64,000 nucleotides of DNA from positions 1,664,001-1,728,000 of the forward strand of contig CBDCSU010000006.1 of assembly GCA_965221775.1 (NCBI GenBank), in the 5' to 3' direction. Below the pieces are notes generated by a model. That model ran no database searches and was not told the origin of the DNA. It saw nothing but the letters and a program-made list of their open reading frames with translations. Every line of letters starts with the position of its first letter. The stretch's first letter is position 1. Shown in pieces: positions 32,667-37,769 of the stretch. The DNA comes from Candidatus Latescibacterota bacterium (GTDB taxonomy: Bacteria > Latescibacterota > UBA2968 > UBA8231). The position numbers were made by a program, and so were the translations under genes.

Positions 32667-34019
32667 ATGGTCCGAGCGGGCCTGTGCGCGGCCCTCGCGG
32701 GGGCCTGCTGGCTGCTGGCCGGGGCCGCCGCCGCGGGTGAGCCGGAGACCGAGGCAAGCCGATTCTGGCCCGCCTGGCGCGGCCCCCTGGGCACCGGCGC
32801 CTCTCCCCACGCTGAGCCCCCGCTCCAGTGGAGCCAGACCCGCAACCTGCGCTGGAAGGCGTCCCTGCCCGGCGGCGGCCACTCTACGCCGGTGGTCTGG
32901 GGCGACCGGGTCTTCATCACCGCCGCAGTCCCGTACGGCGAGCCCCTGCCGCCGACGTACAGCGGGCTGCCGGGCGGCCACGACGAACGGCCGGTCACCC
33001 ATCGCCACCGGTTCGTCGTCCTTGCCCTGAGCCGCACCACGGGGCGGGTCCTCTGGCAGCGGGTCGTGCGCCACGACCTGCCCCGCGCCGGGGGCCACTA
33101 CACCGCCAGCCTGGCCTCCGCCTCGGCGGTGACCGACGGCGAGCACCTGGTCGCCTCCTTCGGCTCCCACGGGATCTACGGCCTCGACCTCGAGGGGGAG
33201 CTGCTGTGGGAGTTGGACCTCGGCCCCATGGAGCCGCTTCACGGCCACGGCGAAGGCAGCTCGCCGGCGCTCGCCGGCGGGACGCTGATCGTCAACTGGG
33301 ACCACGAGGGCGAGTCCTTCCTCGCCGCCTTCGACAAGAGGACGGGCGGCCTGCGCTGGAAGGCTCCGCGCGAGCCGGCCTCGTCCTGGACCACCCCCAT
33401 CGTGACCGACGCCGGCGGCCGCATCCAGGTCGTGGTCAGCGGCTCCGGGGGAGTGCGCGGCTACGACCTGGCCGACGGCCGCAGGATCTGGGAGTGCCCC
33501 GGCCTCTCGGTGGAGAACGTGGTCTCCACGCCGGTGGCCGGCTTCGGCCTCGTCTTCGCGGGCAGCAGCTACGACCGGCAGGCGGTGCTGGCGATTCCGC
33601 TGCAAGCCGCCGCGGACGAGACCGGCGGGCCCCGCCGGGCCGCCTGGAGCCGCACCCGGGGGGCGCCGTACGTCCCCTCCTTCCTGCTCTACGGGGACGC
33701 CCTCTACTTTGTCCGCCACTTCCAGAACATCCTCACCCGCGTCGACGCCCGAACGGGGCGGGACCGGCCGGGGCCGATGCGCCTGAAGGGCCTCGACCGG
33801 GTCTTCGCCTCTCCCGTCGCCGCTGCCGGCCGCGTGTACGTCACCAGCCGCAACGGCGTCACCGTGGTGGTCAGCCACGCCGATTCGCCCGCCCTCCTGG
33901 CCGTCAACCATCTCGACGACAGCTTCAGCGCCTCGGCGGCACTGGCCGGCGGCGAGCTCTACCTGCGAGGACGACACCACCTCTACTGCATCGCGGAGCA
34001 TCCGCCCCCGGCCCGGTGA
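32667..34019 (+). CDS. Secreted PQQ-like beta-propeller protein (BamB-like repeats)
   Basis: Signal peptide, WPAWRGP, GHSTPVVWGDRVF, SWTTP, FSASAALAGGELYLRG. Confidence 0.88.
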   Translation: MVRAGLCAALAGACWLLAGAAAAGEPETEASRFWPAWRGPLGTGASPHAEPPLQWSQTRNLRWKASLPGGGHSTPVVWGDRVFITAAVPYGEPLPPTYSGLPGGHDERPVTHRHRFVVLALSRTTGRVLWQRVVRHDLPRAGGHYTASLASASAVTDGEHLVASFGSHGIYGLDLEGELLWELDLGPMEPLHGHGEGSSPALAGGTLIVNWDHEGESFLAAFDKRTGGLRWKAPREPASSWTTPIVTDAGGRIQVVVSGSGGVRGYDLADGRRIWECPGLSVENVVSTPVAGFGLVFAGSSYDRQAVLAIPLQAAADETGGPRRAAWSRTRGAPYVPSFLLYGDALYFVRHFQNILTRVDARTGRDRPGPMRLKGLDRVFASPVAAAGRVYVTSRNGVTVVVSHADSPALLAVNHLDDSFSASAALAGGELYLRGRHHLYCIAEHPPPAR

Positions 34020-34044
34020 ACCCGGCAGGCGCCGGCGGTGTCAA
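34017..34044 (+). promoter_or_regulatory. Putative ECF-type (autoregulatory) promoter
   Basis: TGAACC-N16-TGTCAA, ending 15 nt before the sigma ATG; GGAGG at 34051-55. Confidence 0.55.
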
Positions 34045-37600: not shown

Positions 37601-37769
37601 CCTCGGCCGGGAGCGGTCCGGGTCCGGGCCGGAGGGGTTCGGCGTCCTGGCCCGGGCCCGCCGGGTCGAGCGCCCGGGCCTCGTCTTCGCGAGGGCTGCC
37701 CTCAGGGGCGAGGTCGATCCCCTGGAAGACGAGCAATCGCGGCTGCTGGTCGGACTGTCCAGGCCGTGA
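34668..37769 (+). CDS. Miniaturised single-chain RpoB-RpoC (beta-beta') RNA-polymerase-like protein, 1033 aa
   Basis: Collinear beta motifs ([60 protein letters not shown]) followed by beta' motifs (FSGRAVI, GLPAEMA, ADFDGDQ, SGAR, REGL, GARRGL). Confidence 0.92.
   Translation: [1033 protein letters not shown]

Follow-up and report, generated by a model that had tools for sequence, protein, structure and literature searches.

An ECF sigma factor encoded together with a minimal single-chain β–β′ RNA polymerase homologue in uncultured bacteria

Can a bacterial chromosome encode a second RNA polymerase (RNAP), with a sigma factor of its own, apart from the housekeeping enzyme? In the textbook view bacteria have one RNAP core. 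The question is raised by a locus in the genome of a Candidatus Latescibacterota bacterium (GenBank assembly GCA_965221775.1, contig CBDCSU010000006.1, positions 1,664,001 to 1,728,000 of the forward strand; this whole stretch of 64,000 nucleotides is called the window, and positions without a contig name refer to it). At this locus the gene of a sigma factor of the extracytoplasmic function (ECF) type is followed, 2 nt past its TAG stop, by the ATG (34668) of an open reading frame (ORF) encoding a 1033-aa protein in which homologues of the β and β′ subunits of RNAP (RpoB and RpoC) are joined in one chain, hereafter the fusion. The original prediction, made from the sequence alone, had described the two genes and a ribosome-binding site of the second inside the first, at coordinates that we confirm, and had proposed that they form a dedicated two-gene system. 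The module proves real, is conserved and under selection, and is undescribed to the extent of our searches; for its mechanism we offer an inference. Its elements are as follows.

34017..34042, + strand: ECF-type promoter TGAAC-N14-CGGTGTC, with the same motif and spacing before sigma orthologs
34060..34665, + strand: ECF (group 4) sigma factor of the sigma-70 family, 201 aa, from Pfam and TIGR02937; stop codon TAG at 34663-34665
34653..34660, + strand: Shine-Dalgarno-like GGAGGAGG for the fusion gene, within the end of the sigma gene, from direct reading of the sequence
34668..37769, + strand: 1033-aa single-chain β–β′ fusion (minimal two-barrel polymerase), stop codon included, from the ORF, Pfam and an AlphaFold2 model

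Relatives of the fusion are numerous: at least 120 are full-length (1003-1092 aa, 43-98% identity), and every named one is called hypothetical; listed proteins shorter than 900 aa are possibly fragments from contig ends. We compared 15 family loci from species-representative genomes, whose recorded taxa are Latescibacterota, Poribacteria, Chloroflexota (Anaerolineae, Caldilineaceae), Planctomycetota (Phycisphaerae, Planctomycetales) and Myxococcales. In 15 of 15 an ortholog of the sigma factor (37-93% identity) is encoded directly upstream, in the same orientation as the fusion, and, antisense shadow ORFs and synteny local to single lineages aside, no third gene is common to the 15 loci. In the class, 27 of 61 genomes have the fusion, and all of these also have a sigma ortholog scoring at least 259 bits; the only other sigma holder (28 in total) is genome G014, where the gene lies at a contig end, and the next-best sigma match in the 61 genomes scores 124.7 bits. 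On these counts the proposal of a dedicated two-gene system holds. That translation is coupled is suggested by the 2-nt gap and by a ribosome-binding site placed within the sigma gene; judging from the gene arrangement, the two genes appear translationally coupled in most loci.

The distribution of the module is patchy, across several phyla of uncultured bacteria: 64 of 168 genomes of the phylum carry the family-specific N-terminal region of the fusion, and the fusion occurs in 5 of 10 genomes of the window's own genus (G000 counted). One 8.4-Mb genome (G059) has two modules, at C1:1427411-1431183 and 3367482-3371728, with the exact promoter only at the second. All 33 matched fusion places in related genomes are free of internal stops. 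The ratio of nonsynonymous to synonymous substitution rates (dN/dS) over the whole length was 0.36 between the window and its closest locus (L003) and 0.13-0.16 for four Poribacteria pairs. The module is conserved as a unit and is under purifying selection.

The separate canonical pair whose presence the original prediction had left to be confirmed is there: rpoB and rpoC lie adjacent on another contig of the same genome. In a tree built from two concatenated conserved blocks (389 columns; long-branch effects apply), the longest branch separates 25 family sequences from 11 canonical ones, the genome's own among them; the fusion is therefore not a recent duplicate of the host rpoBC. The 25 family members were chosen, the 11 canonical sequences were taken from the 26 canonical loci that gave both blocks, most redundant Bacteroidales were dropped, and the tree has no archaeal or other outgroup. 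As to the assembly, where G+C is 70-76% in the window around the sigma/fusion site, a 20,954-nt contig of run X1 matches 33000-38500 with 0 differences and is possibly the source assembly itself. Contigs from two other studies, X5 (33384-34936) and X8 (33350-34923), bridge the sigma/fusion junction with few differences, and sponge and marine metagenome runs from seven studies contain the stretch. We gave no weight to runs containing only a minor fraction of the words of the stretch, nor to parts of the stretch without RNA-library cover. Since there are at least 120 relatives, dN/dS of 0.13-0.36 and bridging contigs, the fusion is neither a decaying copy nor a misassembly. Decay, misassembly and a lack of sigma linkage had been named at the outset among the findings that would speak against the system; the dN/dS values, the bridging contigs and the sigma linkage go the other way.

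What kind of protein is the fusion? Its motifs follow the order of RpoB and then RpoC: the segments at residues 201-217 and 335-346, with MGANMMRQ (264-271) and FED (312-314) between them, PSR (376-378), GQRLGEMEV (469-477), PHPW (565-568), FSGRAV (641-646), ADFDGDQ (741-747; nt 36888-36908) and, towards the C terminus, SGAR (916-919) and GARRGL (964-969). Every motif listed in the original prediction is present in the predicted order, and the β/β′ junction, placed near 36290, agrees with where our alignments to RpoB and RpoC of the same genome put it (near residue 541). The Pfam search that had been suggested as a check found, again β then β′, Rpb2_3 (173-227), Rpb2_6 (6.1e-27), a weak Rpb2_7 and Rpb1_2 (8.9e-14). 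The NCBIfam models for RpoB, RpoC and full-length fusions match in pieces and far under their cut-offs: TIGR02013 (rpoB) gave 163.5 bits (5.1e-48) against a cut-off of 801.15, and TIGR02386 (rpoC) 100.4 bits against 963.5, so that the fusion is an equivalog of neither. To map its anatomy, we set the genome's own RpoB (1278 aa; 2e-79) and RpoC (1365 aa) against a profile built from 22 family members, with the following correspondences.

Profile 103-203, own RpoB 431-543: fork / rifamycin region
Profile 210-264, own RpoB 614-668: MG.NM.RQ
Profile 257-297, own RpoB 748-788: FED
Profile 303-510, own RpoB 1041-1262: GDK..R.G.KG barrel to the C-terminal segment
Profile 526-556, own RpoC 95-125: weak match, carrying the family's PHPW (HIW segment in own RpoC)
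Profile 560-740, own RpoC 264-479: clamp helices to the DFDGD barrel (6.1e-41)
Profile 860-964, own RpoC 669-782: SGAR and bridge helix
Profile 982-1006, own RpoC 1293-1317: region H, weak match

Large parts of the canonical subunits have no counterpart in the family, namely ~165-430 (lobes) and 789-1040 (flap) of the own RpoB, and 1-90, 126-263, 480-668 and 783-1292 of the own RpoC. The RpoC stretches we take, from established domain maps, to be the Zn finger, the lid, the secondary-channel region, the trigger loop and the jaw, and a 20-residue gap in the family alignment lies at the site of the canonical β′ rudder. A profile search of the PDB gave the same pattern of kept and lost parts. By these alignments the fusion has neither lobes nor flap on the β side, and no Zn finger, lid, rudder, jaw or trigger loop on the β′ side. 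Both double-psi barrels are retained, with the residues that bind metal and substrate, as are the clamp helices and the bridge helix; the two barrels (Rpb2_6 and Rpb1_2) in one ORF without a trigger loop place it among single-chain two-barrel proteins. The AlphaFold2 model (mean predicted local distance difference test score 82.1, predicted template modelling score 0.77) matched best, in Foldseek, bacterial and plastid β and β′ chains, with E ~1e-20. Within the fusion gene we delimited the following parts.

34668..35183, + strand: family-specific N-terminal region, residues 1-172, from profile search
35184..36287, + strand: β-like core, residues 173-540, with fork/Rif segment, FED, GDK..R.G.KG barrel and β C-terminal segment, from profile alignment
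36288..37766, + strand: β′-like part, residues 541-1033, with PHPW, clamp helices, FSGR, DFDGD barrel, SGAR, bridge helix and region-H-like C terminus
36423..36548, + strand: clamp-helix hairpin, residues 586-627 (model helices 586-598 and 606-627), aligned to own RpoC 264-306
36891..36905, + strand: catalytic DFDGD, residues 742-746 (among the full-length members counted below, D742 is kept in 176/182, D744 in 180/182, G745 in 181/182 and D746 in 179/182)
37530..37622, + strand: bridge-helix-like helix of 31 residues, 955-985, from the AlphaFold2 model, with GARRGL aligned to HGARKGL of own RpoC

Just 48 residues follow the bridge helix, which therefore leaves no room for a trigger loop. In bacterial RNAP the β′ coiled-coil (clamp helices) binds sigma region 2, and in the hairpin of the family N593, P605, L608 and L616 are conserved. 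The N-terminal region, whose first helix (PWHK.SFD.F....LP.LL) is highly conserved, is possibly what is left of the N-terminal hairpin of RpoB; the alignment of residues 60-112 to own RpoB 140-166 was not significant (hhalign probability 9.6%; -2.9 bits). Its profile matched 202 cluster representatives at E<=1e-3 among 1.84 billion proteins, and among the 150 matches listed none is longer than 1101 aa, the full-length ones matching inside their first 180 residues. At 35215-35235 (residues ~183-189, HLRRILV) the family has Leu/Ile where the own RpoB has the Ser of HKRRLSA, and lacks the LGPGG loop that follows; in E. coli numbering this Ser is position 531, where Leu confers rifampicin resistance. 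The rifamycin pocket of the fusion looks remodelled in this alignment.

We counted the conservation of catalytic residues in 182 full-length members (930-1150 aa; shorter proteins were left out). G335, R341 and G343 are kept in 182/182, D336, R270 and R378 in 181/182 each, K345 in 178/182 and K337 in 176/182. The barrel motifs DFDGD, GDK..R.G.KG and MG.NM.RQ, by which RpoB and RpoC catalyse, are thus near-invariant. Because this holds across phyla, catalysis is favoured and a pure decoy disfavoured; on conservation we favour the view that the fusion is a catalytically competent polymerase rather than a sigma-binding mimic. The loss of the trigger loop does not preclude activity, because YonO, an enzyme of the Bacillus subtilis prophage SP-beta, is active without one. 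According to its description (PMC5467207), YonO is a ~100-kDa single-chain two-barrel enzyme and an active DNA-dependent RNAP without trigger-loop homology, efficient in RNA synthesis, of lower fidelity and without cleavage.

The sigma factor consists of regions 2 and 4 only (Pfam Sigma70_r2, 1.8e-14; Sigma70_r4_2, 2.2e-12). It belongs to the superfamily modelled by TIGR02937 (89.9 bits, cut-off 42.9), and no equivalog or subfamily model of the NCBIfam scan matched it at cut-off. Aligned orthologs share an unusual conserved linker (P.WM.D) and an acidic C-terminal tail (W..DWEE). In the promoter, the -35-like TGAAC (34017-34021) overlaps the stop codon of an upstream BamB-like gene and the -10-like CGGTGTC (34036-34042) ends 17 nt 5′ of the sigma start codon. 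By pattern match, TGAAC-N14-CGGTGTC occurs shortly 5′ of the sigma start in 14 of 15 sources (the window and L003-L016); the remaining one, L014, has a variant of the motif, as judged by eye. The exact motif is present in a single copy in the 5.36-Mb genome (a backwards-read control gave 0 forward and 1 reverse), and it lies upstream of the sigma–fusion module in 5 of 5 further genomes.

We read the operon as a self-contained pair of a dedicated ECF sigma factor and a drastically reduced single-chain RNAP, apart from the housekeeping rpoBC. The sigma factor, probably first on the host core enzyme, would fire the operon from TGAAC-N14-CGGTGTC and so close a positive loop. The fusion would, like YonO, transcribe a DNA template although it has no trigger loop, and its clamp helices would take the co-translated sigma factor as the fusion's own promoter-specificity subunit, which would give a second, orthogonal holoenzyme of ~135 kDa. 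Of these steps the docking of sigma on the fusion is the least certain; what argues for it is the retained clamp-helix hairpin with its alignment to own RpoC 264-306, together with the apparent coupling of translation in most loci, the perfect co-occurrence of the two genes and the conserved linker and acidic tail of the sigma factor. In full, as an active minimal sigma-linked polymerase that also takes its own sigma, this reading is tentative, and we give it close to half of our confidence. That the outcome is a second orthogonal transcription machine, in which a polypeptide of ~1,030 residues starts with its own ECF sigma at promoters of the TGAAC-N14-CGGTGTC type, is, in our view, somewhat less likely than not.

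Several observations weigh against this reading. The flap is deleted in the fusion, although the promoter keeps the ordinary ECF -35/-10 geometry; in the bacterial holoenzyme it is the flap tip helix that holds sigma region 4. With ordinary promoter geometry and no flap, reading of the promoter by the host enzyme fits at least as well. Of three classical sigma-binding residues in the clamp helices, two, R275 and E295 in E. coli numbering, align to alanine, with A302 kept. No regulon or clear target set emerged from scans for the exact promoter in the own and five other genomes or for one-mismatch sites. The five other genomes have 6 additional exact copies, mostly inside ORFs. One-mismatch scans gave 27 hits against 6 in controls at spacing 14, 44 against 20 at spacing 13 and 10 against 3 at spacing 15, and of the nine sites inspected most lie within long open frames. 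In addition, 2 of 29 places of the sigma ortholog carry an in-frame TGA, one each (G004:C6:17820-18419 and G044:C1:1253704-1254279), which could be a sequencing error, a pseudogene or a match running past the stop.

The substrate-binding residues add to these points. The Arg in the RxPxLH motif, a contact of the incoming ribose, is described as strictly conserved in multisubunit RNAPs (PMC7708050). In the family this position is R in 164 of 182 members and His in the window's clade (H707, 36786-36788), and the residue before A-DFDGD is N in 109 of 182 and Asp in the window (D740, 36885-36887). The LH of RxPxLH is replaced in all 22 aligned members. The ribose-recognition residues are relaxed in the family, and sugar selectivity within the family may differ.

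Furthermore, in some genomes (one genus plus one other) 1.3-2.4 kb with an extra gene lie between sigma and fusion, so that tight coupling of the two is not universal. The extra gene, which is downstream of the same promoter motif, encodes either an ATP-binding cassette (ABC) exporter of 586-597 aa (ABC_membrane and ABC_tran) or a protein of 381-396 aa that no Pfam family matches. The positions of these intervening genes in the oriented copies of the loci, of which L098, L101, L102 and L104 are reverse-complemented, are the following.

ABC exporter or 381-396-aa protein between sigma and fusion: L098 1684-3477, L100 1933-3693, L102 1673-3466
The same, further loci: L099 1560-2750, L101 1590-2735, L104 1630-2775

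Poribacteria loci have 74-264-nt inserts between the two genes, among them inserts of ~200-260 nt (L007 5714-5976, L008 5738-5976, L015 5801-6000), some of which contain inverted-repeat-like stretches; we dropped these inserts as a lead, the sequence not being conserved.

A contig across the gene junction from an RNA-library run of a sponge sample makes expression of the locus possible. The contigs of this run come from a strain of 90-95% similarity; one covers 33912-34987, junction included, and four short ones lie over the fusion gene, with similar cover of the genes on either side. The junction contig, however, begins ~105 nt upstream of the promoter, and therefore reflects read-through from the BamB-like gene or a possible carry-over of DNA; this, too, weighs against our reading. 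The RNA-library strain has small compensating indels near the sigma stop and the fusion start.

Would the same facts be explained without a sigma-dependent fusion? The sigma factor may work only with the host RNAP, as the switch of the operon, and the fusion may be an active, sigma-independent two-barrel polymerase that extends primers, copies RNA like QDE-1, or transcribes unusual templates. The standard ECF promoter geometry, together with the loss from the fusion of the flap that positions sigma region 4, would be accounted for. So would the single exact promoter per genome, as expected of a one-operon sigma, the gene that parts sigma from fusion in some genomes, and the relaxed ribose-recognition residues; moreover, known single-chain two-barrel enzymes function without sigma. 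Whether YonO requires extra factors is left open in its description (PMC5467207). Against a sigma-independent effector stand the kept clamp-helix hairpin, the translational coupling in most loci and the perfect co-occurrence of sigma and fusion, and the conserved unusual linker and acidic tail of the sigma factor would need another explanation. Weighing both sides, we consider this alternative rather unlikely, and it is the one that survives best beside the sigma-dependent polymerase.

Alternatively, the fusion may be a pseudo-core that does not polymerise and, like an anti-sigma factor, sequesters sigma, so imposing negative feedback on the autoregulated promoter. An anti-sigma gene beside an ECF sigma gene is common, though not universal, and here there is none: only sigma and fusion are common to the loci, and no anti-sigma gene was found in the operon or its flanks in the window. 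The position of the fusion gene and its translational coupling resemble sigma/anti-sigma pairs, the clamp helices are kept, and no regulon was found. A decoy, however, would not need near-invariant catalytic residues across phyla, nor would it have to keep the two barrels, fork region and bridge helix across 1000 residues, and dN/dS of 0.13-0.36 applies across the whole length. We regard the decoy as improbable.

The module may instead derive from a mobile element, as a prophage or plasmid pair that transcribes the genes of the element, like YonO for SP-beta. The patchy spread within class, phylum and genus, with the counts given above, the occurrence in several phyla and the two copies in G059 would suit such an origin. 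No member, however, was found in 50,697 phage and 72,556 plasmid records (no place covering >=80% of the query), nor in IMG/VR by family-specific patterns. The PADLOC anti-phage defence models gave 0 families for sigma or fusion, matches in PHROGs were only generic RpoB/RpoC-like ones, and the flanks vary by lineage and consist of ordinary cellular genes. Neither the phage, plasmid and IMG/VR searches nor the cellular flanks point to a phage or plasmid origin of the fusion, which we judge very improbable. Finally, a decaying duplicate of rpoBC or an assembly artefact is rejected with near certainty by the intact ORFs at all 33 matched places, dN/dS far under 1, the longest branch of the tree and the independent bridging of the junction.

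Functionally, the closest known proteins to the fusion are the single-chain two-barrel RNAPs of phages and fungal linear plasmids. YonO, as described, resembles it in being one ~100 kDa chain with both double-psi barrels, no trigger loop and most regulatory domains gone. YonO, however, has very distant similarity to cellular enzymes, whereas the fusion family matches bacterial β and β′ strongly; YonO is prophage-borne without a linked sigma, whereas the family is chromosomal, sigma-linked and keeps the clamp helices. Among 35 phage matches (E<=1e-5) there was no Bacillus phage, the presence of SP-beta in the collection being unchecked. Compact single-chain two-barrel enzymes, those of fungal linear cytoplasmic plasmids included, have been listed as a class whose tabulated hosts are phages and fungal plasmids only (PMC7281927). 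The crAss-like phages encode a single-chain two-barrel RNAP and phage P23-45 reportedly has single-chain RNAPs. Compared by description, the fungal-plasmid, P23-45 and crAss-like enzymes are set apart from the fusion as plasmid- or virus-encoded and not known to have a sigma-70-family partner.

A reduced two-barrel enzyme joined by a sigma-like specificity subunit is found in the non-virion RNAPs of the jumbo phages phiKZ and AR9. Compared by description, these differ from the pair here in being multisubunit, with split β and β′, phage-encoded, and in having specificity subunits that are not ordinary ECF sigmas. The full-length fusions of the Helicobacter/Wolbachia type (NF007172, NF011417) have the same β-then-β′ order in one chain, but are housekeeping enzymes of ~2,840-2,890 residues with all domains, whereas the fusion has 1033 aa and stands beside a canonical rpoB–rpoC; it falls outside both families (145.2 bits against a cut-off of 5372 for NF007172, 154.8 against 4632 for NF011417). 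In classical ECF sigma/anti-sigma operons, likewise, the ECF promoter is autoregulated and the sigma gene precedes a partner to which it is translationally coupled, but that partner is a membrane or zinc-binding anti-sigma factor in place of a 1033-aa polymerase homologue.

The view that this is not a described system stands: in the open full-text literature, subscription journals and supplements being beyond reach, we found no description of the sigma–fusion pairing. The main text of the ECF reclassification contains none of six terms related to RNA polymerase (PMC7826278), the supplements with the genomic contexts of ECF groups lying outside our scope. In the ESM Atlas, queried with the 84%-identical homologue P0008, clusters of the family are named 'hypothetical' or 'DNA-directed RNA polymerase family protein'. 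The Atlas also has other clusters with Rpb2_6 and Rpb1_2 in one protein, of 1221-1787 aa and without recorded taxa, and there may be further compact fused polymerase families in metagenomes.

If the sigma-dependent polymerase is real, the textbook view of one core would need qualifying, with cellular chromosomes carrying a minimal paralog that is conserved, under selection and linked to a sigma factor. This paralog would be the smallest known sigma-dependent RNAP and, the housekeeping enzyme apart, the first in cells. The lack of flap, lid, rudder, Zn finger and trigger loop would make it a natural experiment on the parts needed for sigma-dependent initiation, and with a remodelled rifamycin pocket and no flap, jaw or trigger loop it might resist many inhibitors of the host enzyme. 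A self-activating set of polymerase, sigma and promoter would be a ready-made orthogonal expression module. The family also bears on the origin of single-chain two-barrel polymerases from multisubunit ones. Should the fusion instead prove a core mimic that traps sigma, it would represent a new class of anti-sigma mechanism.

Around the module, the window encodes an RNB-domain RNase, the BamB-like propeller, two SPFH proteins, an NfeD protein and a 2-hydroxyacid dehydrogenase. Flanking genes of ribosomal, phage or anti-sigma type are absent, in keeping with the context described in the original prediction. Beyond the window, a promoter copy with one mismatch (TGAAG-N14-CGGTGTC) is found 10 nt 5′ of the gene of a 199-aa paralogous ECF sigma factor (G000:C6:341249, - strand), which could indicate cross-talk or merely a related sigma group. 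On the 3′ side of the fusion gene, and converging on its end, lies an ordinary membrane-scaffold operon.

37855..40288, - strand: two tandem SPFH/Band 7 genes after an NfeD-like gene

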